Positions 26,944 to 64,000 of a stretch of 64,000 nt of DNA are shown one piece after another (position 1 is the first letter of the stretch; every line of letters begins with the position of its first letter). Where the stretch lies: assembly GCF_017302975.1 (NCBI RefSeq), contig NZ_JAFIMT010000003.1. One strand, written 5' to 3'. A program made the translations under genes and the position numbers. This DNA comes from Corallococcus exiguus. Its GTDB lineage: Bacteria; Myxococcota; Myxococcia; Myxococcales; Myxococcaceae. Under the pieces are notes generated by a model, which worked only from the letters and a program-made list of their open reading frames with translations, was not told where the DNA came from and ran no database searches.

Positions 26944-27920
26944 AGGCCCCTGCCCGCCCCCCTCTCAAGGCGCGGCTGCGCGCCCTGCTTCGTCCGCCGC
27001 GCACGCTGTCGGTGACGAAGACGGGCCGCACGTATCTGGTGGTGACGTTCGGCGTGGGGCTGGGCGCGCTCAACACGGGCAACAACCTGCTCTACCTGCT
27101 GCTGGGCCTGCTGCTCAGCATGGTGGTGGTGTCCGGAGTGCTGTCGGAGCGCTGCCTGCGCGACCTGACGGTGCGACGGGTGGGCGCGGACGCGGCCTTC
27201 GCTCGCGAGCCCTTCGCCTACCGCTGGGCGGTGTCGCGCAAGAAGGGGCACGGCTTCGCGCTGACGTTCTCCGAGGACCTCTCGTCGCTCACCGGCACCG
27301 GGAAGCTGGGGCATCTGTCCGCGGGCAAGGAGCACATCGTCCGCGCGGACCTGGCCGCGCCGCACCGGGGCCCCGTGCGCCTGTCCGGCGTGCGCGTCAC
27401 CACCACGTGGCCCCTGGGCCTGTTCGCCAAGACGCGCGTGTTCTCCCTGGAGGGGACGCTGCTCGTGTACCCGCGCCGCGGCTACGCCTGCAAGGAACCG
27501 GGGCCCGCGGAGAAGGGCCCCCGGGGCGAGGCGGGCAGCCCGCGCCATCTGGACGGCACCGGCGACGTGGCGGGCCTGCGCGAGCTTGCCCCGAACGAGG
27601 ACGCGCGCCGCATCCACTGGCTGAAGAGCGCCGCGGCGGGGCGCCTCCTGAAGGTGGAGCGCGAGCGCGAGGAGCGCCGCATCTGGAAGCTCGCGCTGGA
27701 GACGGGCCTCACGGGGGACGCGCTGGAGCGCCGGTGTGAAGAGGTCGCCGCCCAGGCGCACCAGCTGCTGGACGCGGGACATGAGGTCGGCCTCCAGTTG
27801 CCGGAGCGCGCGCTGCGGCCCGCGGCGGGGGCTTCGCAGGAGCGGCGCATCCTCCAGGCGCTCGCGTGGGTGGGCTTCGAGGGCGTGGACGCAGGGACGG
27901 ACTCCCGGGAGGCGGCGTGA
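26940..27920 (+). CDS. DUF58-family protein (MoxR partner).
   Basis: The GTG start overlaps the MoxR stop (GTGA). It has two N-terminal TM helices and DUF58-like motifs (DxRRIHW). The 3-gene synteny with MoxR and a transglutaminase supports the call. Confidence 0.75.
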   Translation: MKAPARPPLKARLRALLRPPRTLSVTKTGRTYLVVTFGVGLGALNTGNNLLYLLLGLLLSMVVVSGVLSERCLRDLTVRRVGADAAFAREPFAYRWAVSRKKGHGFALTFSEDLSSLTGTGKLGHLSAGKEHIVRADLAAPHRGPVRLSGVRVTTTWPLGLFAKTRVFSLEGTLLVYPRRGYACKEPGPAEKGPRGEAGSPRHLDGTGDVAGLRELAPNEDARRIHWLKSAAAGRLLKVEREREERRIWKLALETGLTGDALERRCEEVAAQAHQLLDAGHEVGLQLPERALRPAAGASQERRILQALAWVGFEGVDAGTDSREAA

Positions 27921-30389: not shown

Positions 30390-31292
<903 letters not shown>

Positions 31293-31362
31293 GGGCTGTT
31301 TTCGCGCCCCGGCGGAGACCCTGCTACAACGGGCCCCCTGATTTCCTGTCAGGAGTGCCTGC

Positions 31363-43749: not shown

Positions 43750-44008
43750 GGTCCCGGAGTCTACCCGGACCACCGTGCCCGGGGGCGTGCCCGGCGGCTT
43801 TTCTCCACCGCAAAGCCATACATCAATAACAGACGTCCCTCTCCTCACCCTGAGAGGACCCGGTGGAGGTCACTCAGCCGGAAACACCGTTTCGATGCGA
43901 CTGCAAGCCCCCTCCCCTGGGTCAAAAGTCGCCGTGAAGCGGGAGATCCAGCGGCTTGTCGGAGCCCAGGATGTTTCGTGAGACATTCGCGGGGTTCTCA
44001 ACGTTTAC

Positions 44009-47000
44009 ATGCCCTCCGGGGCGATGATGGAAACCATGACGTCACCCTCGGACGACAAGCGGGCCCTGCTGGCGAAGCTCCTCCAGGAGAAGGTCGCGGC
44101 CCCCAGGCGCTCTCCGCTCTCCTTCGCGCAGGAACGGATGTGGTTCCTCGAGCAGTGGAGCCCCGGGGGCTCGGCGCTGAACATGCCGGTGGGCGTGCGA
44201 CTCCTGGGCGAGCTCCAGGCACCGGTGCTCCAGCGCGCGCTCCAGGCGCTGGTGATCCGCCATGAGACGCTGCGCACCACCTTCGCGCTGTCGGACGGAC
44301 GGCCCGTGCAGGTCGTCGCCCCCACGCTGGAGGCGGCGCTTCCCTTGGAGAATCTGCAGGCGCTTCCCCCATCAGAGCGGGAGGCCCGTGCCGTCCAGCG
44401 CGTCGCGGAGGTGGCTCGTGAGCCCTTCGACCTGGAACGGGGGCCGCTGTTCCGGGCGCGCCTCTTCCGACTATCCGCGCGCGAGCACCTGTTGCTCTTC
44501 GCCATGCACCACGGGGTGTCGGACGCATGGTCCATGGGCGTCGTCGTCCGCGAGTTGACGGCCCTCTACGCGGCCTTCCAAGAGGGCAAGGCTCCCGAGC
44601 TGACTCCCCTGCCCCTGCAGTACGGCGACTACGCCAGCTGGCAGCGTCGGGCCCAGGAGGGCGAAGAGGCGGAGGCGCGGCTCGCCTGGTGGCGCGAGCG
44701 CATCGACCCCCACGCGTTGCTGGAGCTGCCCACGGACAAGCCGCGTCCGGCGGTGCTGGGCACTCGCGGCGCGCGCGAAGCGCTTGAGCTGCCCGCCGCG
44801 CTCACCGCGGACCTCAAGGCGTTCGCTCGGAAAGAGGGCCGCACGCTGTTCGTCACCCTGCTGGCGGTGTTCCAGACCCTGCTCCACCGCTACACCGGCC
44901 AGGAGGACCTCGCCGTCGGAACGCCCGTGGCCAACCGCCCCCGCGCGGAGCTGGAGGGGCTCATCGGCCTGTTCGTCAACACGGTCGTCCTGCGGACGGA
45001 CCTGTCGGGTGCTCCGTCCTTCCGGGAGCTGCTGGCGCGGCTCCAGTTGGTGGCGCTCGATGCCTTCGCTCGCGAGGAGCTTCCCTTCGAGCGGCTGGTG
45101 GACGCCCTCAAGCCGGGCCGCGACCCGAGCCGCGCTCCCCTCTTCCAGGCGATGTTCGTCCTCCAGAACGCACCGCTGCCGCCCCTGGAGGTGCCGGGCC
45201 TCCAACTGGAGGCGCGTCCGGTGGACACGGCTTCCGCCCAGTTCGACCTGACGCTCATCGCCGAGGACCTGCCCCAGGGACTGCGCCTCACCGCGGAGTA
45301 CCCCACGGACCTGTTCGAGCCCGGCACCGCCCGCCGGATGTTGGCGCACCTGGTCCGCCTCCTGGAGGGAGCCCTGGCCGCGCCGCACGAGCGCCTGTCG
45401 CGGCTGCCCCTGCTCACCCCGGACGAGCGCGAACAGTTGCTGGGAGCGTGGAGCGGCGCTTCCGCGCCCTATCCCCACGAGGACGGTCTGCACACCCTCT
45501 TCGAAGCCCAGGCGCGCCGCACGCCCGACGCGCCCGCGCTCACCTTCGAGGGCGAATCGCTGAGCTACCGGCAGCTGGACGCGCGCGCCAACCAGTGGGC
45601 CTGGCACCTGCGAGGGCTGGGCGTGGGGCCGGAGACCTACGTGGGGCTTTGCGCCGCGCGCTCGTTCGACATGGTGGTGGGCATGCTCGCGACGCTCAAG
45701 GCGGGCGGCGCCTATGTCCCGTTGGATCCCACCTATCCCACGGCGCGGCTGGCCTTCATGCTCCAGGACTCCGCCGTGAAGGTGCTGCTGGCCCACCGGC
45801 CCTTGCTCGCGGGACTGCCCTCCGCTCCGGGCGCGCGCGCGGTGTGCTTCGAGGATGGGGTGCCGGACGCGGACACCTCGCGGGCGCCTCCTGGAGCGCC
45901 CCTGCCGGACGGCCCCGCCTACGTCATCTACACCTCTGGCTCCACGGGCCAACCCAAGGGCGTCATGTGCACGCACCGCGCGGCCTGCAACCTGGTGGTG
46001 CACGAGGCGCGCGTCAGCGAGCTGGGCCCGGGCTCTCGCGTGCTCCAGTTCTCCAATCCCGGCTTCGACGTTTCCGTGGAGGAGATCTTCGCCACCCTCA
46101 CGGCCGGCGGCACCTTGTGCCTGGCGCCGGTGGAGCGGCTGATGCCCGGCGAGCCGCTGCACCAACTGCTGAAGCAACAGGCCATCACCGTGCTCAACGC
46201 CACGCCCACGGCGCTCGCGGCCACCGACGCCACGGGCCTGCCCGCGCTGCGCACCGTCTTCTCCGGTGGAGAGGCGTGCACCGCGGAGTTGGTCGCGCGC
46301 TGGGGCGAGGGCCGGCGCTTCATCAACGGTTACGGGCCCACGGAGGTGACGGTGACGGCCACCGCGACGGAGGTCCGGCCGGAGGGCCGCGCGCCGCCGC
46401 TGGGCCGCCCCATCCCCAACGTGCGCGTGTACGTGCTGGACGCGCGGCTATCGCCGGTACCGGTAGGTGTCCCCGGCGAGCTTTGCGTGGGCGGCGTGGG
46501 CCTCGCGCGCGGATACCTGAACCTGCCGGGCACCACGGCCGAGCGCTTCGTGCCGGATCCGTACGCGTCCGAGCCGGGCGCGCGCCTCTACCGCACGGGC
46601 GACCGGGTGCGCTGGCGGCCGGACGGGGAGCTGGAGTTCCTGGGCCGGCTGGATGGCCAGGTGAAGCTGCGCGGCTTCCGCATCGAGCTGGGGGAGATCG
46701 AGGCGGCGCTCCGTCAGCACGCCGCGGTGGAAGAGGCCGCCGTGCTCATCCAGGACACGCCCGCAGGGGGCCAGCGGCTCGTCGCGTGGCTCGTCCCGGC
46801 CACGGCGGGCCAGCCACCCACCGCGACAGCGCTGCACGCGTTCCTCCTGGAGCGGCTTCCGCCGCACATGGTGCCCTCCGCCTTCGTCGCCGTGACCGCG
46901 TTCCCACTCACCGCCAACGGCAAACTGGATGTTCGCGCGCTTCCGCCACCCACGGCGGGTCAGCTGGAATCGGGGCGAACGTTCGAGGCGCCGCGCACGG

Positions 47001-47359
47001 AGCGGGAGGAGCAACTGGCCCGGCTCTGGAGCGAGGTGCTCCAGGTGGAGCGCGTGGGCCTGGATGATGCGTTCTTCGAGCTGGGCGGCAACTCGCTGCT
47101 CGCGCTGCGGCTGCACCAGCGGCTGCGCGCGGAGCTGGGCGTGGAGCTGCCGCTGACGGTGCTCTTCCAGCACTCCACGGTCCGGGCCCTGGCGGAACGC
47201 CTGGCGCAGGGTGGCGGATCCGACAGCGGGGCGAAGTCCGGACGCGACCGGTCTCGCCGGCGGCAGGCCTTCGCTCGCAAGACGGTGGCCGCACCCGCGC
47301 GGGACTCGGACGACGACGTGGAGCTGGAGCCGGAGCTGGACGAGGACGCGGATGTCTGA
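44009..47359 (+). CDS. Non-ribosomal peptide synthetase, single module C-A-T; first gene of the biosynthetic cluster.
   Basis: The C domain carries HHGVSDAWS. A-domain core motifs are present (YVIYTSGSTGQPKGV, NGYGPTEVTV, GELCVGGVGLARGY, YRTGD, GRLDGQVKLRGFRIELGEIE, and a KLD Lys in LTANGKLD). The PCP motif is FFELGGNSLLAL. Confidence 0.9.
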   Translation: MPSGAMMETMTSPSDDKRALLAKLLQEKVAAPRRSPLSFAQERMWFLEQWSPGGSALNMPVGVRLLGELQAPVLQRALQALVIRHETLRTTFALSDGRPVQVVAPTLEAALPLENLQALPPSEREARAVQRVAEVAREPFDLERGPLFRARLFRLSAREHLLLFAMHHGVSDAWSMGVVVRELTALYAAFQEGKAPELTPLPLQYGDYASWQRRAQEGEEAEARLAWWRERIDPHALLELPTDKPRPAVLGTRGAREALELPAALTADLKAFARKEGRTLFVTLLAVFQTLLHRYTGQEDLAVGTPVANRPRAELEGLIGLFVNTVVLRTDLSGAPSFRELLARLQLVALDAFAREELPFERLVDALKPGRDPSRAPLFQAMFVLQNAPLPPLEVPGLQLEARPVDTASAQFDLTLIAEDLPQGLRLTAEYPTDLFEPGTARRMLAHLVRLLEGALAAPHERLSRLPLLTPDEREQLLGAWSGASAPYPHEDGLHTLFEAQARRTPDAPALTFEGESLSYRQLDARANQWAWHLRGLGVGPETYVGLCAARSFDMVVGMLATLKAGGAYVPLDPTYPTARLAFMLQDSAVKVLLAHRPLLAGLPSAPGARAVCFEDGVPDADTSRAPPGAPLPDGPAYVIYTSGSTGQPKGVMCTHRAACNLVVHEARVSELGPGSRVLQFSNPGFDVSVEEIFATLTAGGTLCLAPVERLMPGEPLHQLLKQQAITVLNATPTALAATDATGLPALRTVFSGGEACTAELVARWGEGRRFINGYGPTEVTVTATATEVRPEGRAPPLGRPIPNVRVYVLDARLSPVPVGVPGELCVGGVGLARGYLNLPGTTAERFVPDPYASEPGARLYRTGDRVRWRPDGELEFLGRLDGQVKLRGFRIELGEIEAALRQHAAVEEAAVLIQDTPAGGQRLVAWLVPATAGQPPTATALHAFLLERLPPHMVPSAFVAVTAFPLTANGKLDVRALPPPTAGQLESGRTFEAPRTEREEQLARLWSEVLQVERVGLDDAFFELGGNSLLALRLHQRLRAELGVELPLTVLFQHSTVRALAERLAQGGGSDSGAKSGRDRSRRRQAFARKTVAAPARDSDDDVELEPELDEDADV

Positions 47360-50300
47360 GGAGACAGCGGACACGGTGGAGCGCATCGCCATCGTCGGCA
47401 TGTCGGGACGCTTTCCGGGCGCTCCCACGCTCGACGCCTTCTGGGACAACCTCCGGCGCGGCGTGCACTCCCGGCGCGAGCTGACCGAGGCGGATCTGGA
47501 GCAGGCCGGTGTGCCCCGTGCCCAGCGCGAGCGGCCGGATTGGGTGCGCGCCGCGTATCCGCTGGATGGGCCCACGCACTTCGACGCGGGGTACTTCGGC
47601 TACAGCCCGCGCGAGGCGGAGGTGCTGGATCCGCAGCAGCGCGTCTTCATGGAGACAGCGCTGGAGGCCCTGGAGGACGCCGGCTACGACCCGGAGCGCT
47701 TCCCCGAGGCCATCGCCGCCTTCGCGAGCACCAGCACCAGCTCGTACCTGTTCCAGGCGCTCCTGCGGCGTCCGGAGCTGTTGCAGACGGTGGGCCTGTA
47801 CAATCTGTCGCTCGCCAACGACAAGGACTTCGTCGCCACGCGCACCTCGCACCGGCTGGGCCTGCGGGGGCCGAGCGCCACCGTGCAGACGGGCTGTTCC
47901 AGCGCGCTGGTGGCGGTGCACCTGGCCTGTCAGAGCCTCTTGTCGGGCGAATGCGAGATGGCGCTCGCGGGCGGCGTCTCCGTGGCGTTTCCGCAGACGG
48001 CCGGGTACGCGTACCAACCAGGGATGATCATCTCCCCGGACGGGCTGTGCCGCGCGTACGACGCCCGCTCGCAGGGCACCATCTTCGGCTCGGGCGTGGG
48101 CGTGGTGGTGCTCAAGCGCCTGTCGGAGGCGGTGCGGGACCGGGACACCATCCACGCGGTCATCCTGGGGTCGGCCGTCAACAACGACGGCTCCGCCAAG
48201 GCGGGCTTCACCGCGCCCAGCGTGGAGGGCCAGGCGGCCGCCATCGCGGAGGCGCTCGGCGTCGCGGGCGTGGAGCCGGAGGATGTGCAGTACGTGGAGG
48301 GGCACGGTACGGCGACGGCCCTGGGCGACCCGGTGGAGGTGGCCGCGCTCAACCAGGCCTTCGGCGGCGCGCGCTCGGGCACGCGGCGCTGCGTGCTGGG
48401 CACCGTGAAGGCGAACATCGGCCACCTGGACTCCGCCGCGGGCGTGGCGGGGCTGCTCAAGACGGTGCTGGCCCTGAAGCACGCGGTCATCCCCCCCACG
48501 CCTCACTTCCAGCAGCCCAACCCCGCCATCGACTTCGACGGTGGCCCCTTCTTCGTCACCGCCGAGCCCAGGCCGTGGGACGGAGCGGTGAAGCGCCGGG
48601 CCGGGGTCAGCTCGTTCGGCCTGGGGGGCACCAACGCCCACGTGGTGCTGGAGGAGCCGCCGCGCGCGAAGGCCGCCGGCACCCGGCGCGCGTGGCACGT
48701 GCTTCCGCTGTCCGCGCGCACGCCCCGAGCGCTGGAGGAGGCCACGTCCCGGCTCGCCGCGCACCTGGAGCGCACGCCGGGCCTGGAGTTGGCGGACGTC
48801 GCGTCCACGCTCCAGCGAGGCCGCCGCACGCACGAGCACCGGCGCGCGCTGCTCTGCCGTGACCTGGAGGATGCGCGGGCCGCGCTTGCGGATCCACGGC
48901 GCCACCTGGGGGGCTCGAGCGTGAACGCGCGCCGCCCCGTGGTGTTCCTCTTCCCCGGCCACGGCAGCCACCACGTGGACATGGGCCGCGCGCTGTACGA
49001 AGCGGAGCCCGTCTTCCGCAAGCACCTGGACGCGTGCCGAGACGCGCTGGCCCCGCATCTGGGCCAGGACCTGTGCTTCGTGCTGTTTCCGGATCAAGCA
49101 CCGCAGGAGGCGGAGGCGCTGCTGGAGCGGATGACCTTCGCGCAGCCCGCGATGTTCGCGGTGGAGTACGCGCTCGCGCAGCTGTGGCGTTCGTTCGGCG
49201 TGGAGCCGGAGGCCATGGTCGGCCACAGCACGGGCGAGTACGTGGCCGCGTGCCTCGCGGGCGTGTTCTCGCTCCCGGACGCGCTGGCGCTGGTGGCCGC
49301 GCGCGGGCGCCTCATGGATGCGCTGCCTCCCGGCGGCATGCTGTCGGTGTCCCTGCCAGAGGACGCACTCGCGCCGCTGCTGCCACCAGGGGTTTCCGTC
49401 GCGGCGGTGAACGCGCCCGCGCTGGTCGTGGTGGCTGGGCCCTCCCAGGCGTTGGAGGCGCTGGAGGCGACGCTGGCCGCCAGGGGCGTGAGCACCCGGC
49501 GGATCCGCGCCCGGCACGCGTTCCACTCAGAGGCCGTGGCGCCGATGGTGGAGGGCTTCCTCCAGGAACTTTCGCGCGTGCGCCTGTCGCCGCCGAAGCG
49601 GCCGTACGTCTCCAGCCTGACCGGGACGTGGATCACCGCCGCGCAGGCGACGGATCCACGAACCTGGGCGAGCCACCTGCGCGAACCCGTCCGCTTCGCG
49701 CAGGCCGCGACCACGCTGCTTGGGAGCACGGAGCGGCTCTATCTGGAAGTCGGTCCGGGCCAGGCGCTGGGGACATTCGTCCGGCAGTGCGCCCCCCCGG
49801 GCAGTCACCCCACCGCCCTCACGTCGCTGCCGCGCCCGCGCGATGGCCAGGACGCCCACCTGCACCTGACGGAGACAGCCGCCCGGCTCTGGCTGGCCGG
49901 CGCATCCATCGACCTGGCGAAGCTGTACGGCAAGGAGCCCCGCCGCCGCGTTCCACTGCCGCCCTACCCCTTCCAGCGGGAGCGCTTCGACCTGCTCGCG
50001 GTCGCGTCCGTTCCGGGTGCCCGGCTTCCGGCCTTCGCGGTGTCCGAGGTCCCCCGCGAGGACGTCACCCCCGCGCTCGAGTGCGCGGCGCCCACGTGGC
50101 AGCGCGTCGCGGGCGCTCCCGTCCCCCGCTTCGATGATCAGCGCTGGCTGGTGATGGAGGATGCGAACGCGCCGGGAGGAAGCATCGCGCGGCTGATGGA
50201 AGCACGAGGCGCGGATATCCTCGCGCTGGGATTGGACGCGGCATGGGCGCCGCTCGAGGAACGGCTGGCGGCCGGTGGAGGGCCGGACCACGTCGCGTTC

Positions 50301-56300: not shown

Positions 56301-59300
56301 GCTCGGGCCGCCCGCCACCCGGAGCGGCCAGCGGTGGCCTGCGCCGGTGAGGTGCTCACGTATGGGGCGCTGGACACGCGCGCCAACCAACTGGCGTGGC
56401 GACTGCGCTCGCTGGGCGTGGGTCCCGAGACGCGCGTCGGGCTGTGCCTGGAGCGCTCGGTGGACATGGTGGTGGCCCTGTTGGGGGTCTGGAAGGCCGG
56501 GGGAGCGTACGTCCCGCTGGAGCCGTCCCAACCCGCGCAGCGGCTACGGACCCTGGTGGAGGAGATCGCCGCCCCCGTCGTCGTGACAGCGTCTCGTCAC
56601 GCGGAGGCCTTCACTTCGCTCGCGGCGCACGTGGTGCGGATGGACACGGACGCGCAGGTGCTCGCGGCCCAGCCACGGGAAGCTCCCGCCCACGGCGCCA
56701 CCGCGCGGTCACTGGCCTACGTCCTCTTCACGTCGGGCAGCACGGGCCGGCCCAAGGGCGTGGCCGTGGAGCATGCCCAGCTCTTCCAGTACGTGCGGGC
56801 CGCCACCGAAAGGCTGCGGCTGGAGGAGTGCGCAAGCTTCGCGCTCGTCTCCACCTTCGCCGCGGACCTGGGCAACACGGTGCTCTTCCCCGCGCTGTGC
56901 ACGGGAGGCCTGCTCCACGTGCTGCCGCAGGAGTTGGCCAGCAGCCCCGCGGAGGTGGCGGCGTACTTCCAGCGCCACGCGGTGGACTGCATGAAGATCG
57001 TCCCATCGCACCTGGCGGCGCTGCTGACGGCGGCCGAGCCCCGCCACGTCCTGCCCCGGAAGAAGCTGGTGCTGGGAGGTGAGTCCTCCTCGCCGGCCCT
57101 GCTGGAGCAGGTGCGAGCGCTGGCGCCGGACTGCGAGCTGTTCAACCACTACGGCCCCACGGAGACGACCGTGGGAGTGAGCGCGGGTCCGGTGGAGGTC
57201 CGGCCCCAGGCACCGGTCCCTCTGGGCCGGGCCCTGGCGCACACGCGGCTGTATGTCCTGGACGAAAGGCTGCGGCCCGTGCCCGTGGGCGTCCCGGGCG
57301 AGTTGTTCATCGGCGGCGCGCAGGTGACGCGCGGCTATCTCGGCAGGCCGGAGCTGACGGCGGAGCGCTACTTGCCGGACGTGCACAGCCCGCTGCCAGG
57401 CGCGCGCATGTACCGCAGCGGGGATCGGGTGCGCTGGCTGCCGGATGGGCGCGTGGAGTTCATCGGTCGCGCCGACTTCCAGGTGAAGGTGCGCGGCTTC
57501 CGTGTGGAGCCGGGAGAAGTCACCGCGGCCCTGAACGAACACCCCGCCGTGCGTGAGGCCTGGGTCGTGGCGCGCGAGGACATGCCCGGGGATGCGCGGC
57601 TGGTGGCCTACGTCGTGAGTGCGGCGGAGCCCGTGCCCACCGGGGAGCTGCGCGCCTTCCTCCAGGAGCGGCTGCCGGCCTACATGGTGCCTGCCGCCTT
57701 CGTGCACCTGGAAGCGATGCCGCTCACCTCGAACGGCAAGTTGGATCGCAAGGCCCTTCCCGCGCCAGAAGACACGACCCGCGAGGCGGCCTTCATCGCC
57801 CCGCGAACGCCCACCGAGGAACGGCTCGCGGCCCTGTGGGCCGGGCTGTTGCGCGCGGAGCGGATCAGCGTGGAGGAGGACTTCTTCGCGCTCGGTGGCC
57901 ACTCACTGCTGGCAACGCAGGTGGTCTCGCGGGTGCGCCAGACCTTCGAGGTGGAGCTGCCGGTGCGAGCGCTCTTCGAAGCGCCCACCGTGGCCGCGCT
58001 CGCGGCGCGCATCGACTCCGCCGCGCGTACGCAGGCCCCTGCCCTGCGCCCTGTTCCTCGTGACGGGGACCTGCCCCTCTCCTTCGCCCAGCAGCGCCTC
58101 TGGTTCATCGACCAGTTGCAGCCGCTGAGCGCCGCCTACCACATGCCCACCTTCGTGCGGCTGGTGGGCCCTTTGGATGAAGCCTCGCTACAACGCGCGC
58201 TGGATGAACTGGTGCGTCGTCACGAAGCCCTGCGCACCACCTTCGTCCAGCACGAAGGCCAACCGCTTCAGCGCATCTCCGCCACGGCGCAGCTGCCGCT
58301 CGTCGTCTTGGAGCCGGGGGCCGTTCCCCTGGAGCCGCAGCTGAGAGAAGAGGCCTCACGACCCTTCCAGCTCGACTCCGGTCCCCTGGCCCGAGCGAGG
58401 CTCTGGCGCCTGGGCCCCACCGAGCACGTGCTCGCGCTCACGCTCCACCACATCGTCTCCGACGGCTGGTCCATGGGCGTGCTGGTGCGCGAAGTCGCCG
58501 CCCTCTACGAGGCCTTCTCCCAGGGCAGGCCTTCCCCCCTTCCACCTCTGCCCGTGCAGTACGCCGACTACGCCGTCTGGCAGCGACAGTGGCTGCAAGG
58601 CGACGTCCTCCAGGCGCAACTGGACTACTGGAAGCACCAGCTCTCTGGCTCCGCTCCGCTGGAGCTGCCCACGGACAAGCCCCGGCCTCCCGTGCAGTCC
58701 TCCCACGGCGCGCAGGTGCCTGTCGTCCTGCCGGCCGAGACGTCCCGTCGAATCAAGGCCCTGGGTCTCCAGGAGGGCGTCACGCCCTTCATGCTGTTGC
58801 TGGGCGCCTTCCAGGTGCTGCTCTCCCGCTACTCCGGCCAGGAGGACATCACCGTCGGCTCTCCCATCGCCGGACGTCAGCGCGGGGAGCTCGAAGACCT
58901 CATCGGCTTCTTCGTCAACACGCTGGTGCTTCGTGCACGCGTTGCCCCCGCCCTCTCCTTCCGGGCCTTGCTCGCGCAGGTGAAGGAGACGGCACTGGGG
59001 GCCTACGCCCATCAGGACGTCCCCTTCGAGCGGCTGGTGGAGGAGCTTCACCCCACGCGCGACATGAGCCGCGCTCCGCTCTTCCAGGTCCTCTTCTCCC
59101 TGCAAGGCGTACCCGGCACGGAGCCCCTTCGGAGCCAGGCCCTGTCGCTGCACCCATTGGAGGCGGACACCGCGACCTCCAAGTTCGAATTGCAGCTCAT
59201 CCTCTCCGCCCCCCCTGAGGGCTTCCGAGGCACGCTCGCCTTCAACACCGACCTCTTCGAAGAAAGCACTGCCTCACGCATGGCCGGGCACTTCGGCCGC

Positions 59301-62300
59301 CTCGTGGATGCACTGCTGACACGGCCCGACGCACCTCTGGCCTCCGTCTCCATGCTCGGCGAGGACGAACGGCGCCAGGTGCTCGTGGAGTGGAACACCA
59401 CTGCTTCCGACTTTCCTCGCGACGCCAGCATCCACTCGCTCTTCCACGAACAGTCGCTGCGGACTCCGGACGCCGTCGCCGTCGAGGCGGAAGGGACGAC
59501 GCTCACCTATCGGCAGCTGGATGCGCGCGCGAATCAGCTCGCGCGTTTCCTGCTGACACTGGGCCTGGGTCCGGAGCCGCGCATCGGGGTCTGTCTCCAC
59601 CGGAGCGTGGATCTGGTGGTGGGGCTGCTGGGCATCCTCAAGGCCGGTGGCTGCTACGTGCCGCTGGATCCTTCCTACCCGCCCCAGCGGTTGGCGTTCC
59701 TGCTCGGGGATTCGGATGTGGCGGCGGTGCTCACGCATCAGTCCCTGACGCCGGTGCTTCCGGAGTCCTCGCGCCCGGTGGTGTGCCTGGACTCCGACGG
59801 GGAACGGATTGCACGTCAGCCGGTGGAAGCGCCGCACGCGCCCGTCCGCGCGGATCAACTGGCGTATGTCACGTACACGTCGGGTTCGACGGGGACGCCC
59901 AAGGGCGTGGCCATTCCCCACCGGGGCGTGGTGCGGCTGTTGTTCGGCTCGCGCTTCGTGAAGCTGGGGCCGTCGGAGGTCGTGTTGCAGCTCGCGCCGC
60001 TGGCGTTCGACGCGTCGACCCTGGAGCTCTGGGGTGCGCTGTTGCACGGCGGCCGGTTGGTGCTCTTTCCCCAGGCGGTTCCGTCGATGGAGGAGCTGGG
60101 CCAGGCCCTGCTCCGGCATCAGGTTTCGGTGCTCTGGCTGACGGCGGCGCTCTTCGACCAGATGCAGCAGGAGCAGCCTCAAGCCCTCGCGGCCGTGGCG
60201 CAGCTCCTCGCCGGAGGCGATGTGCTCCCCGTGCCGCGGGTTCGCGAGCGGCTGGCCCAGTCGCGCGGCCTCGTGAACGGCTACGGCCCCACGGAGAGCA
60301 CGACCTTCACCACGTGTCACGTGATGGCTCCCGGAGACGCCGTGGGCGGCTCCGTGTCCATCGGCCGGCCCATCGCCAACACCCAGGTCTACGTGCTGGA
60401 TGCGGCGATGCAGCCGGTCCCAGTGGGAGTGCCGGGCGAGCTGTACATTGGCGGTGACGGCCTGGCGCGGGGCTACCTGGGGCGGCCAGCCCTCACCGCG
60501 GAACGCTTCGTGCCGCATCCCTTCGCGGCGTCGCCGGGCGAGCGGCTGTACCGCTCCGGGGACCGCGTGTGCTGGAGCGAGGACGGCACGCTGAGGTTCC
60601 TGGGGCGCATGGACTTCCAGGTGAAGCTGCGCGGCTTCCGCATCGAACCGGGCGAAGTGGAGGCGGTGCTGCGCGAGCACGCCGACGTCACCGAGGCGAC
60701 CGTGCTGGTGCGCGAGGACATCCCCGGAGACAAGCGACTGGTGGCCTACGTCGTGCCCGCGGAGCTGGACCCAGCGAGGCTGCGAGACCACCTGCGCCAG
60801 CGTCTGCCGGAGTACCTGGTGCCATCCGCCTTCGTGGCGATGAAGGCCTTGCCGCTGTCGGCCCACGGCAAGGTGGACCGCAAGGCACTGCCCGCACCGG
60901 AAGCCCCACGCGGCTCCGCGCCCCACGAGCCCCCGCGCAACGCGCTGGAGACCCAGCTGGTCTCGCTCTGGGAGAAGGTCCTGGGCCGGGAAGGCATCGG
61001 CATTCACGATCACTTCTTCGAACTGGGAGGCCATTCACTGCTGGCGACCCAGCTCGTCTCCCGGATCCGTTCCGCACTGGAAGTGGAGCTGCCAGTGCGA
61101 GCGCTCTTCGAAGCGCCCACCGTGGCCGCGCTCGCGGCGCGCATCGACTCCGCCGCACGCACGCAGGCCCCTGCCCTGCGCCCTGTTCCTCGTGACGGGG
61201 ACCTGCCCCTCTCCTTCGCCCAGCAGCGCCTCTGGTTCATCGACCAGTTGCAGCCGCTGAGCGCCGCCTACCACATGCCCACCTTCGTGCGGCTGGTGGG
61301 CCCTTTGGATGAAGCCTCGCTACAACGCGCGCTGGATGAACTGGTGCGTCGTCACGAAGCCCTGCGCACCACCTTCGTCCAGCACGAAGGCCAACCGCTT
61401 CAGCGCATCTCCGCCACGGCGCAGCTGCCGCTCGTCGTCTTGGAGCCGGGGGCCGTTCCCCTGGAGCCGCAGCTGAGAGAAGAGGCCTCACGACCCTTCC
61501 AGCTCGACTCCGGTCCCTTGGCCCGAGCGAGGCTCTGGCGCCTGGGCCCCACCGAGCACGTGCTCGCGCTCACGCTCCACCACATCGTCTCCGACGGCTG
61601 GTCCATGGGCGTGCTGGTGCGCGAAGTCGCCGCCCTCTACGAGGCCTTCTCCCAGGGCAGGCCTTCCCCCCTTCCACCTCTGCCCGTGCAGTACGCCGAC
61701 TACGCCGTCTGGCAGCGACAGTGGCTGCAAGGCGACGTCCTCCAGGCGCAACTGGACTACTGGAAGCACCAGCTCTCTGGCTCCGCTCCGCTGGAGCTGC
61801 CCACGGACAAGCCCCGGCCTCCCGTGCAGTCCTCCCACGGCGCGCAGGTGCCTGTCGTCCTGCCGGCCGAGACGTCCCGTCGAATCAAGGCCCTGGGTCT
61901 CCAGGAGGGCGTCACGCCCTTCATGCTGTTGCTGGGCGCCTTCCAGGTGCTGCTCTCCCGCTACTCCGGCCAGGAGGACATCACCGTCGGCTCTCCCATC
62001 GCCGGACGTCAGCGCGGGGAACTCGAAGACCTCATCGGCTTCTTCGTCAACACGCTGGCACTGCGCATCCAGGTGGACGGGCAGAAGTCGTTTGTTCACT
62101 TGTTGCGACAGGTGAAGGAGACGGCGCTGGGGGCCTACGCCCATCAGGATGTCCCCTTCGAGCGGCTGGTGGAAGAGCTTCAGCCCACGCGCGACATGAG
62201 CCGCGCTCCGCTCTTCCAAGTCCTCTTCGCCCTACAGAACGCTCCGGCCTCATCTCTTCGCGAGCAGGCCCTGTCGCTGCGCCCGTTGGACGTCGAGGCC

Positions 62301-64000
62301 TCCACCTCCAAGTTCGAATTGCAGCTCATCCTCTCCGACACCCCCGAGGGCTTCCAGGGGGCCCTCGGCTTCAACACCGACCTCTTCGACGCGAGCACCG
62401 CCTCGCGCATGGCCGCGCACTTCGGCCGCCTCGTGGATGCGTTGCTGGCACGGCCCGACGCGCCCCTGGCATCGGCCTCCATGCTCAGCGAGGACGAGCG
62501 GCGCCAGGTGCTCGTGGAGTGGAACAACACCGAGGCCAGCTATCCGCAGGACTCCACCCTTCCTGAAGTCTTCGCTCAGGTCGTCGCCCGATTCCCCGAG
62601 ATGCTCGCACTTGAGTTCGGAGAGGCACGCCTCACCTACCGGCAGCTGGACGCGCAGGCCAACCGCCTTGCGCACCACCTGCGCGGTCTCGGCGTCACCA
62701 CCGACTCGCGAGTGGCCATCGCGCTGGACCGCTCGCTAGAACTCGTCGTCGGCCTGCTCGCCATCCTCAAGGCTGGCGGCGCCTACGTACCGCTGGATCC
62801 CAGCTACCCACCTGAGCGTCTCGCGGCCATGGTCGAGGACGCCCGTCCGCGTGTCCTCCTCACGTCCCGTGCACTCCTGTCGAAGCTGCCCGAGGCCTTG
62901 TCCACGGTGGTGCTGGAGGAAGTCTCGCTGGAGGGCCTGCCGACCCACGCCCCTGCGCCTTCCGCCCTTCCTCTGAGCCTCGCCTATATCGACTTCACCT
63001 CCGGCTCCTCCGGCAGGCCCAAGGGCGTCGGCACTCCTCACCGCGCCGTCCTTCGCACCCTCTTCGGCAAGGGCCTCACCCACTTCGGGCCCGACGCGTC
63101 CTTCTTGCTCCTCGCCCCCATCTCCTTCGACGCCTCCACCTTCGAAATCTGGGGCGCCCTGCTTCACGGCTCACGTCTCGTCATCGCCCCCCCCTCTCCT
63201 CCCTCCCTCGAAGAGTTGGGCGCACTCATTCAGCGCTCATCCATCACCACCCTCTGGCTCACCTCCGGCCTCTTCTCCCAGATGGTCGACGGCCACCTCG
63301 AAGGCCTTCGCCCCCTCAAGCACCTGCTCACCGGAGGCGACGTCGTCTCGCTCGCGCACGCGCGACAAGTCCTCGACTCGCTCCACCTCCCCGTCACCAA
63401 CGGCTACGGCCCCACCGAGTCCACTGTCTTCGCCACGGCCCTCCACCTCCGTGACACAACCTTTCCCGGTGCCTCGCTGCCCATCGGCAAGCCCCTGGCC
63501 AATACCCGCGTCTACGTCCTCGACGCCCACGGCCTTCCGCTTCCCATCGGCCTGCCCGGTGAACTCTTTATCGGCGGTGACGGCCTCGCGCGCGGATACC
63601 TTGAGCAGCCCTCCCTCACCGCGGAGCGATTCCTCCCTGACGCCTTCTCCTCCACTCCCGGCGCGCGTCTCTACCGCACCGGCGACAAGGCCCGCTGGCG
63701 CACGGACGGCTCTCTCGAGTTCCTCGGCCGCCTCGACTCCCAGGTGAAGCTGCGCGGCTTCCGCATCGAGTTGCCCGAAGTCGAAGCCGCCTTGCTTCTC
63801 CACCCCGACGTACGCCAGGCCGTCGTCCTGCTTCGCGAAGACGTCCCCGGCGACAAGCGCCTCGTCGCCTACGTCACCGCCCCAGACACACTCTCCGCCT
63901 CCAGCCTGCGCCCTTTCCTCCTACGGCACCTCCCCGAGTACATGGTGCCCTCCGCCTTCGTGCACCTGGACGCCTTGCCCCTCACTGCCCAGGCCAAGCT
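47352..64000 (+). CDS. Giant hybrid PKS-NRPS gene, partial (continues beyond the window; more than 5,549 aa in window). Layout: KS-AT-KR(inactive-like)-T, then C-A-T, C-A-T, C-A-T, C-A(partial).
   Basis: The ATG overlaps the upstream NRPS stop by 8 nt. The frame is open to the window end; the ORF track lists no ORF in this frame, and every listed ORF here lies in the other two frames. The KS domain shows TGCSSALVA, EGHGTATALGDP and KANIGHL. The AT domain shows GHSTGEYVAA. The KR-like region lacks the GxGxxG and YAAAN signatures (GDLEAGGLA…LAAAH). The carrier domain reads DDFFELGGHSLLATQV. Four A domains carry SGSTG(R/T)PKG and K(L/V)RGFR(I/V)E core motifs; the first near 53.55 kb, 56.73 kb, 59.88 kb and 63.0 kb. 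C domains carry HHI(V)SDGWS. Confidence 0.85.
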   Translation, partial: MSEETADTVERIAIVGMSGRFPGAPTLDAFWDNLRRGVHSRRELTEADLEQAGVPRAQRERPDWVRAAYPLDGPTHFDAGYFGYSPREAEVLDPQQRVFMETALEALEDAGYDPERFPEAIAAFASTSTSSYLFQALLRRPELLQTVGLYNLSLANDKDFVATRTSHRLGLRGPSATVQTGCSSALVAVHLACQSLLSGECEMALAGGVSVAFPQTAGYAYQPGMIISPDGLCRAYDARSQGTIFGSGVGVVVLKRLSEAVRDRDTIHAVILGSAVNNDGSAKAGFTAPSVEGQAAAIAEALGVAGVEPEDVQYVEGHGTATALGDPVEVAALNQAFGGARSGTRRCVLGTVKANIGHLDSAAGVAGLLKTVLALKHAVIPPTPHFQQPNPAIDFDGGPFFVTAEPRPWDGAVKRRAGVSSFGLGGTNAHVVLEEPPRAKAAGTRRAWHVLPLSARTPRALEEATSRLAAHLERTPGLELADVASTLQRGRRTHEHRRALLCRDLEDARAALADPRRHLGGSSVNARRPVVFLFPGHGSHHVDMGRALYEAEPVFRKHLDACRDALAPHLGQDLCFVLFPDQAPQEAEALLERMTFAQPAMFAVEYALAQLWRSFGVEPEAMVGHSTGEYVAACLAGVFSLPDALALVAARGRLMDALPPGGMLSVSLPEDALAPLLPPGVSVAAVNAPALVVVAGPSQALEALEATLAARGVSTRRIRARHAFHSEAVAPMVEGFLQELSRVRLSPPKRPYVSSLTGTWITAAQATDPRTWASHLREPVRFAQAATTLLGSTERLYLEVGPGQALGTFVRQCAPPGSHPTALTSLPRPRDGQDAHLHLTETAARLWLAGASIDLAKLYGKEPRRRVPLPPYPFQRERFDLLAVASVPGARLPAFAVSEVPREDVTPALECAAPTWQRVAGAPVPRFDDQRWLVMEDANAPGGSIARLMEARGADILALGLDAAWAPLEERLAAGGGPDHVAFLWPLAPAEGPGAVDRVLHGLLELARRLGPAAAARPVTLAVITCGAQDVTGEEPLRAWQATASGVCRVLAQEYPGLRCRSIDVSPPRPEEGPRWSEQLVAELGAGGPAVVALRGPHRFTESFEPVVPPRTVTSPLRQGGVYLIMGDLEAGGLALAEALATTAQARLVLLTDTVPQASHLERLGGLERAGAQGVLFAPMGAGDPEPLLQGMIAAEARFGAIHGVFFLPQGTAGADRQSLADATAEAWAPVFRSRVGVLGALAGALQGRAPDFVTVCSSLTAVVGGVGRGVLAAAHAAMDTFAAQQNRGPGPRWYVVDLDAWREEVIPVWMGLLAASGQGGRWWISRGPPRAEEPEDGGTPGTAPDPASGSRGTGRHPRPSLATPYVAPRGDSERRVVELWQEMLGIDALGVDDDFFELGGHSLLATQVLARVRSAFAVELPLRAFFEAPTPAKLAERVDAATAAGAPANVLPPLTPVPRDGQPLPLSFSQQSLWFLDQLHPGGSAYNMPSALRLEGRVDTAALEQSFTELVRRHEALRTTFHADGGAPLQRIHPPANFRLAVMDVSSHGTPEAESHRLAAEEQLRPFDLAAGPLLRAVLIRLAEARHVLVVTMHHIVSDGWSLGVLVREMVALYQAFASGQPSPLAPLPVQYADHAAWQRAWLRGEALESRIRWWRQQLEEAPAFLTLPTDFPRPPVASFRGDAVPVALPRALSESLAALCQAEGVTPFMALLAGFQALLSRYSGQDDVSVGSAMAGRRFAEQEALIGFFVNTLVYRTRLHAAPTFRELLARVRDTTLEAHAHQDLPFEKLVEALRPERDPSRSPLFQVNFTFQNMPMGTLEAPGLRFEPIPIEGGTGRFDLTLVLTDTPRGLTGTLEYASDLFRPETARRLVTHLHVLLEGALRSPQLRLSELPLLTDAERHEVLVDWNASDADFPREASLHTLFEAQVRSTPEAQAVVFEAQHLTYRQLDARANQLAHHLRALGVGPEVIVGLCVERSVEGAVGMLAILKAGGAFLCLDPAHPTARLALMLEDSGLQVLLTQDALLDVLPLSSSCVPCCFDADAAAISRRPTTPPEVEVHAGNLAYVIYTSGSTGRPKGTLLAHRGLCNSVLAAVRAHALSPTSRVLQYASPTFDAAILETFAPLLAGATLVLAPRERLLPDAPLRALLTEQEITTVTLTPSVLAQLTSEDLASLRTVISAGEALSPEVARRWSEGRTLLNAYGPTEATVCASITPGPVHADAPGIGKPWPNTRLYVLDANLRPVPVGVPGELFIGGVCLARGYLGRPDLTAGRFLPDPFGTEPGARLYRTGDRVRWRQEGDLEYLGRTDFQVKLRGFRIELGEVEAALQAHAAVLQAVAMVREDAPGLPRLVAYVVANGDGPLDVAALREFLLQRLPEYMVPATLVVLEALPLTSSGKVDRRALPSPESRASGTPGYVPPRTPTEERLAALWAPLLQVEQVGAEDHFFELGGHSLLATQLVSRIRADFGVELALQALFEAPTLAALARRLDAARPEDASRAPPLLPVPRTGALPLSFAQQRLWLIEQIEPGGTAYNIPTVLRIRGRLDRGALGRAFSGLVERHESLRTIFATQDGEPVQIIQPSTEFALPEVDLSDAPDSERVRQCAEAETQRPFNLAEGPLLRALLLRMGEQEHVLVVTMHHIVSDGWSMALLVREVASLYASFSSGLAPSLAPLSLQYADFAAWQRQWLQGDVLSRQLDFWRQQLSGAPALLELPTDRPRPAVQSSRGAWVPFHLPQPLTSSLLSFCQQQGATPFMALLALWQLLLSRYSGQLDISVGAPIAGRTRSETEGLIGFFVNTLVLRSHVEPHSTFRQLLSHVRATTLAAFEHQHLPFEKLVEELQPQRSLRHSPLFQVMFTLRNTPDAAIQVEGGASALELSPVDSEVVAAKFDLNLSLAETPEGLAGEILYRADLFDAATITRMGEHLRTLTEATLAAPDAPVGDLSLLSAGEHAQVLEGFNATADAFVAPGPLHSIIEARAARHPERPAVACAGEVLTYGALDTRANQLAWRLRSLGVGPETRVGLCLERSVDMVVALLGVWKAGGAYVPLEPSQPAQRLRTLVEEIAAPVVVTASRHAEAFTSLAAHVVRMDTDAQVLAAQPREAPAHGATARSLAYVLFTSGSTGRPKGVAVEHAQLFQYVRAATERLRLEECASFALVSTFAADLGNTVLFPALCTGGLLHVLPQELASSPAEVAAYFQRHAVDCMKIVPSHLAALLTAAEPRHVLPRKKLVLGGESSSPALLEQVRALAPDCELFNHYGPTETTVGVSAGPVEVRPQAPVPLGRALAHTRLYVLDERLRPVPVGVPGELFIGGAQVTRGYLGRPELTAERYLPDVHSPLPGARMYRSGDRVRWLPDGRVEFIGRADFQVKVRGFRVEPGEVTAALNEHPAVREAWVVAREDMPGDARLVAYVVSAAEPVPTGELRAFLQERLPAYMVPAAFVHLEAMPLTSNGKLDRKALPAPEDTTREAAFIAPRTPTEERLAALWAGLLRAERISVEEDFFALGGHSLLATQVVSRVRQTFEVELPVRALFEAPTVAALAARIDSAARTQAPALRPVPRDGDLPLSFAQQRLWFIDQLQPLSAAYHMPTFVRLVGPLDEASLQRALDELVRRHEALRTTFVQHEGQPLQRISATAQLPLVVLEPGAVPLEPQLREEASRPFQLDSGPLARARLWRLGPTEHVLALTLHHIVSDGWSMGVLVREVAALYEAFSQGRPSPLPPLPVQYADYAVWQRQWLQGDVLQAQLDYWKHQLSGSAPLELPTDKPRPPVQSSHGAQVPVVLPAETSRRIKALGLQEGVTPFMLLLGAFQVLLSRYSGQEDITVGSPIAGRQRGELEDLIGFFVNTLVLRARVAPALSFRALLAQVKETALGAYAHQDVPFERLVEELHPTRDMSRAPLFQVLFSLQGVPGTEPLRSQALSLHPLEADTATSKFELQLILSAPPEGFRGTLAFNTDLFEESTASRMAGHFGRLVDALLTRPDAPLASVSMLGEDERRQVLVEWNTTASDFPRDASIHSLFHEQSLRTPDAVAVEAEGTTLTYRQLDARANQLARFLLTLGLGPEPRIGVCLHRSVDLVVGLLGILKAGGCYVPLDPSYPPQRLAFLLGDSDVAAVLTHQSLTPVLPESSRPVVCLDSDGERIARQPVEAPHAPVRADQLAYVTYTSGSTGTPKGVAIPHRGVVRLLFGSRFVKLGPSEVVLQLAPLAFDASTLELWGALLHGGRLVLFPQAVPSMEELGQALLRHQVSVLWLTAALFDQMQQEQPQALAAVAQLLAGGDVLPVPRVRERLAQSRGLVNGYGPTESTTFTTCHVMAPGDAVGGSVSIGRPIANTQVYVLDAAMQPVPVGVPGELYIGGDGLARGYLGRPALTAERFVPHPFAASPGERLYRSGDRVCWSEDGTLRFLGRMDFQVKLRGFRIEPGEVEAVLREHADVTEATVLVREDIPGDKRLVAYVVPAELDPARLRDHLRQRLPEYLVPSAFVAMKALPLSAHGKVDRKALPAPEAPRGSAPHEPPRNALETQLVSLWEKVLGREGIGIHDHFFELGGHSLLATQLVSRIRSALEVELPVRALFEAPTVAALAARIDSAARTQAPALRPVPRDGDLPLSFAQQRLWFIDQLQPLSAAYHMPTFVRLVGPLDEASLQRALDELVRRHEALRTTFVQHEGQPLQRISATAQLPLVVLEPGAVPLEPQLREEASRPFQLDSGPLARARLWRLGPTEHVLALTLHHIVSDGWSMGVLVREVAALYEAFSQGRPSPLPPLPVQYADYAVWQRQWLQGDVLQAQLDYWKHQLSGSAPLELPTDKPRPPVQSSHGAQVPVVLPAETSRRIKALGLQEGVTPFMLLLGAFQVLLSRYSGQEDITVGSPIAGRQRGELEDLIGFFVNTLALRIQVDGQKSFVHLLRQVKETALGAYAHQDVPFERLVEELQPTRDMSRAPLFQVLFALQNAPASSLREQALSLRPLDVEASTSKFELQLILSDTPEGFQGALGFNTDLFDASTASRMAAHFGRLVDALLARPDAPLASASMLSEDERRQVLVEWNNTEASYPQDSTLPEVFAQVVARFPEMLALEFGEARLTYRQLDAQANRLAHHLRGLGVTTDSRVAIALDRSLELVVGLLAILKAGGAYVPLDPSYPPERLAAMVEDARPRVLLTSRALLSKLPEALSTVVLEEVSLEGLPTHAPAPSALPLSLAYIDFTSGSSGRPKGVGTPHRAVLRTLFGKGLTHFGPDASFLLLAPISFDASTFEIWGALLHGSRLVIAPPSPPSLEELGALIQRSSITTLWLTSGLFSQMVDGHLEGLRPLKHLLTGGDVVSLAHARQVLDSLHLPVTNGYGPTESTVFATALHLRDTTFPGASLPIGKPLANTRVYVLDAHGLPLPIGLPGELFIGGDGLARGYLEQPSLTAERFLPDAFSSTPGARLYRTGDKARWRTDGSLEFLGRLDSQVKLRGFRIELPEVEAALLLHPDVRQAVVLLREDVPGDKRLVAYVTAPDTLSASSLRPFLLRHLPEYMVPSAFVHLDALPLTAQAK
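57960..58930 (+). repeat. Copy 1 of a near-identical direct repeat of about 0.97 kb inside the PKS-NRPS gene. It covers the end of a PCP domain plus the first two-thirds of a C domain.
   Basis: It is identical or nearly so to 61090..62060, offset 3132 bp. Identical shadow ORFs corroborate this: 58105..58359 with 61237..61491, and 58268..58474 with 61400..61606. Confidence 0.7.
61090..62060 (+). repeat. Copy 2 of the ~0.97-kb direct repeat. Diverged homology continues for about 0.5 kb further downstream of both copies.
   Basis: I aligned the text directly. Identity is essentially complete up to about 62,057, after which the sequence diverges for about 60 nt and then shows substitutions only. 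Confidence 0.7.

Follow-up and report, generated by a model that had tools for sequence, protein, structure and literature searches.

What do the two overlapping genes at the right-hand end of a Corallococcus exiguus sequence assemble, and is their pathway already known? The stretch analysed here, called the window throughout, comprises 64,000 nucleotides of contig NZ_JAFIMT010000003.1 (assembly GCF_017302975.1), and its last 20 kb encode a hybrid nonribosomal peptide synthetase-polyketide synthase (NRPS-PKS). An original prediction, made from the sequence alone, had described an uncharacterised hybrid assembly line opening with a C-A-T gene, and this structural description was reproduced by Pfam searches, motif inspection and comparison with active ketoreductases, with the refinements of position and number given below. 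We conclude that the locus is a genuine orphan cluster of the hybrid NRPS-PKS type, intact, conserved and conventional in design. The reading that we favour, to which we assign a probability of about 0.8, is that the two genes form a functional, co-transcribed NRPS-PKS-NRPS line whose product would be a six-unit peptide-polyketide with a retained ketone. The features on which the argument rests are as follows (C, condensation; A, adenylation; T, thiolation or peptidyl carrier protein (PCP); KS, ketosynthase; AT, acyltransferase; KR, ketoreductase; KR0, inactive ketoreductase; ORF, open reading frame; aa, residues of the encoded protein).

44036..47359, plus strand: ORF1, a stand-alone C-A-T NRPS module (Pfam, choice of start, alignment with orthologues and paralogues)
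44111..45442, plus strand: C domain of module 1 (Pfam Condensation, aa 35-478, E=4.7e-109; motif HHGVSDA)
45500..46924, plus strand: A domain of module 1 (Pfam AMP-binding, aa 498-837, E=1e-87, and AMP-binding_C, aa 896-972)
47009..47203, plus strand: T (PCP) domain of module 1, GGNSL (Pfam PP-binding, aa 1001-1065, E=7.4e-18)
47352..47359, plus strand: 8-nt overlap ATGTCTGA of the ORF1 stop with the ATG of the giant ORF (sequence; conserved in relatives)
47352..63998, plus strand, running off the window end: giant hybrid PKS-NRPS ORF, modules 2-6 (open frame, G+C content at third codon positions (GC3), Pfam)
47379..48509, plus strand: KS domain of module 2 (aa 10-386; Pfam ketoacyl-synt, E=2.3e-66)
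48942..49796, plus strand: AT domain of module 2 (aa 531-815; Pfam Acyl_transf_1; motifs GHSTG and HAFH)
50052..51260, plus strand: degenerate KR region, structural subdomain plus KR0 (Pfam KR, aa 1121-1303, a weak 59 bits)
51474..51668, plus strand: carrier domain of the PKS module, GGHSL (aa 1375-1439; Pfam PP-binding and motif)
51744..54833, plus strand: module 3, C-A-T, code DALTIAAVC(K) (Pfam, motifs)
54897..58016, plus strand: module 4, C-A-T, code DLTKVGHVG(K) (Pfam, motifs)
58059..61145, plus strand: module 5, C-A-T, code DALWLGGTF(K) (Pfam, motifs)
61197..63998, plus strand: module 6, C-A, code DAFWLGGVF, the A domain cut after motif A8 (Pfam, motifs)

Read from ATG 47352, the giant ORF runs without a stop to the final complete codon at 63998, an open frame of 16.6 kb that encodes 5549 aa before the window ends. 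The stand-alone C-A-T gene, the giant ORF of more than 5.5 thousand residues (kaa) and the 8-nt overlap between them therefore all stand as first described, and the stop codons that had been named as a refuting sign are absent from this frame within the window. GC3 is 0.88-0.90 in both frames, like that of other real genes in a window of 70% GC, and antisense ORFs (e.g. 46448-47575 and 46908-49526) were dismissed as high-GC shadow frames. The longest frame of ORF1 is 44009-47359 (plus strand), or 1116 aa. Its true start is most likely ATG 44036 (MTSPSDDK), which gives 1107 aa and is preferred because ATG 44009 is out of frame in Corallococcus llansteffanensis; the MTSPSDDK start is used by most database orthologues, including the C. 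exiguus protein WP_206883656.1, which is identical to the translation of 44036-47356. The ORF1 protein begins with a docking-like segment of 25 aa and ends in an acidic tail. An identical 8-nt overlap joins the C-A-T and PKS genes of C. llansteffanensis and C. coralloides, and in Archangium minus the overlap is 17 nt.

The domain inventory is that of a conventional line. Pfam finds five Condensation domains across both ORFs, one with the motif HHGVSDA and four with HHIVSDG (at aa 1595, 2646, 3699 and 4743 of the giant ORF), while GGHSL carrier signatures lie at aa 1400, 2455, 3515 and 4559. AMP-binding and AMP-binding_C are present in all five A domains, motifs A3, A5, A7, A8 and A10 follow in the expected order, and all five specificity codes begin with Asp235; the A10 motif of module 6 falls outside the window and was seen in the orthologue of Corallococcus carmarthensis. 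The first A domain had been placed near 44.9 kb, but Pfam puts its start at about 45.5 kb. The giant ORF had been credited with at least four C-A-T modules; three are complete in the window and the fourth is cut inside its A domain. As first stated, the window contains no epimerization (E), methyltransferase (MT) or thioesterase (TE) domain by Pfam, and the spacing of the modules, about 1050 aa each, leaves no room for E or MT.

The end of the line is supplied by orthologues. A genome scan with the last 999 aa as query found a contig of C. carmarthensis CA043D that is colinear with window positions 51014-64000 at 92.2% nucleotide identity and extends 1.1 kb past the window end, where it encodes A10, a T domain (GGHSL) and a thioesterase (GWSLG, GDH). 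Pfam assigns PP-binding and Thioesterase (PF00975, E=9e-30) to this extension, with the TE directly after the T domain of module 6. The giant gene of Corallococcus caeni encodes 5957 aa, consistent with about 380 aa of A-T-TE following the 5549 aa seen here, and by orthology the C. exiguus protein is predicted to have a full length of about 5,957 aa. Because orthologues place T-TE after module 6 and the C. caeni gene has this length, the count of at least six modules is confirmed and sharpened: judged from its orthologues, the assembly line is one of exactly six modules and a TE. A homologue search with the last module returned proteins of 1.3-1.75 kaa only and no orthologue, in an index in which giant proteins seem to be under-represented; the best C-A-T-TE hit, P0191, which is 67% identical to the last module, starts its contig and was uninformative about the present cluster.

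The PKS module at the head of the giant protein combines an intact front with a degenerate reductive region. The catalytic triad of the KS is complete, with Cys in TGCSS and His in both HGTAT and NIGH, and the KS-AT block has its best Protein Data Bank (PDB) match in 8xju_A (E=1.2e-231); the linker families that accompany KS-AT are also found by Pfam. HAFH in an AT domain marks malonyl-CoA selection, and the AT is predicted to be malonyl-CoA specific. In the KR region, the cofactor site reads GDLEAGG and the catalytic site LAAAH, compared with GGLGRIG and YAAAN/YSGAN in the active relatives P0095 and P0098. This comparison, together with Pfam and the motifs, bears out the original description of a KS-AT pair, a KR lacking the NADPH-binding glycine motif and the catalytic Tyr, and a carrier with the PCP-type GGHSL signature. 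Judged by its motifs, the KR has no catalytic function left and persists as a decaying spacer; the β-keto group should therefore survive. The Tyr has also been lost across a related clade (Archangium minus, Vitiosangium and 1.5-kaa proteins of Corallococcus), in which the glycine motif is kept, and a metagenomic relative (P0033, on a frameshifted contig) is without any KR region. Compared with C. llansteffanensis, amino acid identity is 94% in the KS, about 90% over the KS-AT block and 63-69% in the KR region; the ratio of nonsynonymous to synonymous substitution rates (dN/dS) is 0.12 for the KS, 0.21 for the AT and 0.36-0.45 for the KR region, which is the fastest-evolving part of the module.

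Elsewhere the line is under constraint. Over all C, A, T, KS and AT segments dN/dS is 0.05-0.36, and all catalytic domains are under purifying selection. ORF1 belongs to a cluster at 90% identity with 18 members, from several strains of C. exiguus and from C. caeni, C. carmarthensis, Corallococcus exercitus and others; the code of its A domain is the same in 15 of 15 members checked, and HHGVSDA is present in all 14 full-length proteins among them. C. llansteffanensis encodes a more distant ORF1 orthologue (83% aa identity) in the same gene pair. Many strains, belonging to at least five species, thus keep the locus, and neither homologue searches nor the genome scan detected an orthologue outside Corallococcus.

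To read the building blocks, each A domain was aligned with the fragment of the GrsA Phe-activating A domain that spans D235-C331, and the Stachelhaus codes that had been proposed as a check could be read for all five. The code of Phe domains is DAWTIAAVCK and that of Tyr domains DASTVAAVCK; on this basis module 3, DALTIAAVC(K), is predicted to select an aromatic, Phe- or Tyr-like residue. Module 1, DVENFGGVT(K), is probably specific for a basic residue of the Arg/Orn type, as DVESIGGVTK, which shares 8 of 10 positions with it, has been reported for Arg and homoarginine, and it fits the Orn-type pattern D-x-E-x-x-G-G-V/I-T-K (PMC12283262). The module 4 code, DLTKVGHVG(K), would specify Asp, or possibly Asn or β-OH-Asp, the residues to which DLTKVGHVGK has been assigned (PMC12283262, PMC10391617). 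Module 5, DALWLGGTF(K), is predicted to load Val, its code matching 9 of 10 positions of the commonest Val code, DALWIGGTFK (PMC12283262), and module 6, DAFWLGGVF, is predicted to accept a Val- or Ile-like residue.

A coherent route follows from these assignments. ORF1 would load the basic amino acid, which its C domain may acylate, and docking between the two proteins presumably runs through the acidic tail of ORF1 and the short N-terminal stretch of its giant partner, a contact that we propose because the gene overlap is conserved. The KS would then accept the aminoacyl or acyl-aminoacyl chain and condense it with malonyl-T, and with the keto group not reduced, this extension would create an internal γ-amino-β-keto acid unit. 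Modules 3-6, with C domains of the LCL type, would add the Phe/Tyr-like residue, Asp, Val and Val/Ile, and since the line lacks E domains, every residue is expected to be L. The TE would release the six-unit product, linear or cyclised, as an (acyl)-basic amino acid-ketide-aromatic-Asp-Val-Val/Ile peptide-polyketide.

Two uncharacterised clusters contain the nearest relatives of the ORF1-PKS cassette and bear on how its leading C domain is to be understood.

Archangium minus Cbm 6 (CP043494, about 5.467-5.513 Mb): PKS, PKS, C-A-T, KS-AT-KR0-T, 10-module NRPS
Conserved paralogous cluster of Corallococcus (C. coralloides KYC2213, L082): PKS, PKS, C-A-T(Ser), KS-AT-KR0-T, MFS transporter, penicillin amidase

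The Archangium minus cluster is the closest complete relative. As in the window, a C-A-T gene overlaps a KS-AT-KR0-carrier (GGHSL) module that feeds NRPS modules, with 70% identity over KS-AT and 60% over C, and the KR has lost its Tyr (LAAAH), although there the NADPH glycine motif is kept. It differs in that the PKS module is a separate protein of 1489 aa, two PKS genes precede the C-A-T gene and the A domain is Ser-type (DVWHVSLVD). We rejected colinearity of its 10-module NRPS with the modules in the window, since the codes differ (Ile/Val-like, Val, Ala, Ser, two unknown, Val, Ala, Ala and Tyr), and the products therefore differ as well. The C. coralloides cassette has a paralogous C-A-T and PKS with the 8-nt overlap and a Tyr-less KR, but its KS-AT is 62% and its whole PKS module 54% identical, its A domain selects Ser and no NRPS modules follow the PKS. 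In both clusters (L081 748-6684 in Archangium minus; L082 722-6682 in C. coralloides), the PKS before the C-A-T protein ends in a carrier and a tail of about 500 aa, which by eye resembles a sulfotransferase of the CurM/olefin-synthase type and finishes in a docking-like helix. The C. coralloides cluster continues with the MFS transporter and the penicillin-amidase-family gene, and both clusters appear to be uncharacterised.

The original prediction took the leading C domain as a sign of N-acylation and proposed that it be subtyped as starter or LCL. Against solved elongation C domains it scores 359 bits (Txo2), 348 bits (Txo1) and 251 bits (TycC6), against solved starter C domains 61 bits (CDA-C1) and 57 bits (RzmA-Cs), and an internal C domain of the giant ORF ranks its PDB matches in the same order. 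By these scores against solved structures, as distinct from a NaPDoS-type phylogeny, the leading C domain is elongation-type (LCL-like) and not a member of the starter clade. It nevertheless opens the first module and has no carrier upstream, in the window as in C. caeni and C. llansteffanensis. Its closest homologues, at 57-60% identity, are the C domains of the Archangium minus and C. coralloides C-A-T proteins with Ser-type A domains, each adjoining two upstream PKS genes. In a four-protein alignment the C domain, the 25-aa N-terminal segment and the T domain are conserved, while the core of the A domain in the window lineage shows no relationship to the others; because the flanking segments align and the core does not, the comparison points to an A-domain exchange in the window lineage of ORF1.

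The C domain itself is probably functional and in want of a carrier-bound acyl donor. Its dN/dS is 0.30 between the window and C. llansteffanensis, which lies within the range of 0.16-0.32 for the four internal C domains (compared with C. carmarthensis) and below that of the dead KR. N-acylation is thus a plausible part of the original interpretation, whereas the starter type is not supported. We favour N-acylation of the first residue, with a donor on a carrier protein encoded outside the window, because the domain is intact and under purifying selection. In the C. llansteffanensis orthologue (L001 6694-10008), the leading C motif reads HHAVSDG where the window has HHGVSDA, and the A domain code is DVVNFGGVT in place of DVENFGGVT, so that Glu239 is replaced by Val; the first building block may differ in that species.

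Several observations weigh against the favoured reading. The leading C domain lies outside the starter clade and its motif ends in Ala in place of Gly, and no FAAL, acyl carrier protein or other acyl donor was found upstream of ORF1 in the window. Both the product and its building blocks are predictions, the latter read from codes of 8-10 residues, although the GrsA fragment used for the alignments is consistent in its numbering and reproduces DAWTIAAIC. For module 1 in particular, literature searches of full texts and supplements gave no exact match to the code, the full-text search of specificity codes having matched the Asp code and no other, and the C. llansteffanensis orthologue carries Val at position 239. 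Tailoring enzymes, a trans-acting KR or a loading module may also be encoded downstream of the TE.

The main rival concerns the leading C domain, which could be a relic without a donor, so that residue 1 keeps a free N-terminus and the TE may cyclise the chain head to tail; the product would then be a non-acylated peptide-ketide, cyclic or linear. The homologous C-A-T proteins of Archangium minus and C. coralloides follow two PKS genes that are absent here, the swapped A-domain core indicates recombination, the motif is HHGVSDA instead of HHxxxDG and no donor gene was found upstream of ORF1. The domain has not, however, evolved like a relic: its dN/dS stays within the range of working internal C domains and clearly below the 0.45 of the dead KR, both His residues and the Asp of its motif are retained in every orthologue, and the docking-like N-terminal segment is conserved too, at 88% identity. 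We regard a relic as unlikely, though it is the rival to be taken most seriously. A further rival is that the leading C domain receives a polyketide chain in trans; the upstream PKS of the paralogous PKS-PKS-(C-A-T Ser)-PKS cluster could be one such source, which would amount to crosstalk between clusters. The N-terminal segment and C domain of ORF1 are 57-60% identical to those of C-A-T proteins encoded directly behind such PKS genes, these PKS proteins end in a docking-like helix, and homologues of the paralogous PKS occur in many Corallococcus strains, C. exiguus included. Yet the proposal is purely inferential, the ORF1 cassette shares more KS-AT identity with its Archangium counterpart (70%) than with the Corallococcus paralogue (62%), and the real donor could be encoded downstream of the TE; on balance such a donor seems doubtful. 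That the whole locus is decaying and non-functional is scarcely credible: a degenerate KR and the lack of the upstream PKS genes seen in relatives speak for it, but a 16.6-kb frame has remained open, all catalytic motifs other than those of the KR are intact, the domains are under purifying selection and conservation of the locus extends to many strains from five species or more. On the favoured reading, of a functional six-module line, a further and decidedly speculative thought is that the Arg-like residue, as a γ-amino-β-keto acid, makes the product an inhibitor of trypsin-like proteases used in predation, the leading C domain perhaps being loaded in trans. If this were true, an electrophilic ketone would lie beside a basic side chain and the crosstalk between clusters would be unusual.

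It is also very improbable that the cluster is one already characterised, whether myxoprincomide, myxochromide, DKxanthene, corramycin or another MIBiG entry. Its uncharacterised status was borne out by orthologues confined to Corallococcus and by comparison of architecture and literature, which gave no characterised match. Single NRPS modules are 50-55% identical to those of many myxobacterial synthetases, including some on a Myxococcus xanthus contig, but this likeness is generic, and the 120 best matches to the PKS module include no protein of M. xanthus. The closest relatives that are not orthologues share 60-70% identity and come from differently composed, likewise uncharacterised clusters. 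Myxochromide and DKxanthene biosynthetic gene clusters (BGCs) place iterative or multi-modular reducing PKSs with dehydratase (DH) and enoylreductase (ER) domains ahead of the NRPS part; in the window there is a single non-reducing PKS module with no DH or ER by Pfam, and both were set aside on this weak test. A closer parallel in assembly logic, drawn without sequence comparison, is the nostopeptolide synthetase (nos) of Nostoc sp. GSV224, in which a leading C domain N-acylates, an internal PKS adds an unreduced acetate (leucyl-acetate), and NRPS modules and a TE follow. That line is cyanobacterial, incorporates nine amino acids, has its PKS on a separate protein and uses different residues.

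Myxoprincomide and corramycin resemble the present line as myxobacterial NRPSs with a single embedded PKS module. Myxoprincomide (MIBiG BGC0000393), made by the single giant gene mxan_3779 in Myxococcus and Pyxidicoccus, was excluded by the two-gene, six-module content of our cluster and by the list of 120 best matches; the distinction rests on architecture, literature and this list. Corramycin (com) was excluded as well, since it requires a 12-module line that starts with FAAL-ACP-C-HAD-T and contains MT and E domains, all absent here by Pfam (PMC10099666). Two further candidates were considered as the identity of the related cassette and rejected because their lines differ in architecture: the myxofacycline cluster is without an A domain and has an aminotransferase, and the myxopyromide cluster is mostly PKS, incorporates Ala and ends in a terminal PKS-TE. 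In myxopyromide biosynthesis (mpd, Myxococcus sp. SDU36), a single NRPS module likewise hands an aminoacyl chain to a PKS, but four of the five genes are PKS genes, the amino acid is Ala, a final PKS-TE forms a pyrrolinone and the cluster is confined to Myxococcus (bioRxiv 10.1101/2023.04.01.535179). According to a 2025 survey, the only characterised BGCs conserved in Corallococcus are those for geosmin, carotenoid, VEPE/AEPE/TG-1, alkylpyrone and myxochelin, all of them phylum-wide; the same survey places myxoprincomide and DKxanthene in other genera, Myxococcus and Stigmatella being those in which the DKxanthene BGC is conserved, and for Corallococcus it lists an unknown hybrid NRPS-PKS as conserved (PMC12766979).

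The architecture will not surprise a specialist, and the machinery is of an ordinary, well-understood kind; the interest of the cluster is modest. It is nonetheless a practical target for genome mining, as it is compact (about 21 kb in two genes), intact, under selection and common to many Corallococcus strains, and the myxobacteria are a proven source of drug leads. The dead KR, the elongation-type C domain at the head and a near-perfect internal repeat are small, testable points on the evolution of assembly lines. The repeat consists of two direct copies.

57951..58926, plus strand: direct repeat copy A, 976 nt, 5 mismatches to copy B
61083..62058, plus strand: direct repeat copy B, 976 nt, near-perfect

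Each copy covers the end of a T domain, the linker and the first approximately 290 aa of the C domain, in modules 5 and 6 respectively, and the encoded proteins are 100% identical across about 300 aa. The two C. carmarthensis copies both show 65 differences from copy A and 68 from copy B of the window, a pattern that suggests ongoing gene conversion, or concerted evolution, between the two predicted Val modules. A near-perfect repeat of 976 nt also means that short-read assemblies break within the giant gene.

Upstream of ORF1 lie selA, an HNH protein, a ParA-like ATPase, a DnaJ/HTH protein, RluD and further genes with housekeeping or regulatory roles, and no PKS or tailoring gene was found there within the window. 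Because all upstream genes in the window are non-biosynthetic, ORF1 is the left border of the cluster. No sigma-70-like site was detected between selA and ORF1 in a promoter scan, which is uninformative for a myxobacterium. The C. caeni locus, on BTTX01000007.1 at about 215-240 kb, shows the gene order of the window, with both genes behind selA. In C. llansteffanensis, selA is separated from the C-A-T gene by about 6 kb of additional genes (L001 416-6202, compared with window 43848-44036), encoding a glyoxalase, a MAPEG protein, a histidine kinase, a KaiC-like ATPase, a Ser/Thr kinase and an ODP di-iron protein; the window and C. caeni both lack them, and in C. caeni selA adjoins the C-A-T gene. 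About 10 kb upstream of ORF1, at 30390-33828, lie the genes of a sigma-70 family factor and, after it, an OPT-family oligopeptide transporter, neither of which shows any sign of membership in the cluster. Further upstream, at 25963-29986, a region of 74-75% GC that is unrelated to the cluster contains genes for a MoxR-type AAA ATPase and a TgpA-like transglutaminase, together with an overlapping, unassigned ORF of 380 aa (26778-27920).

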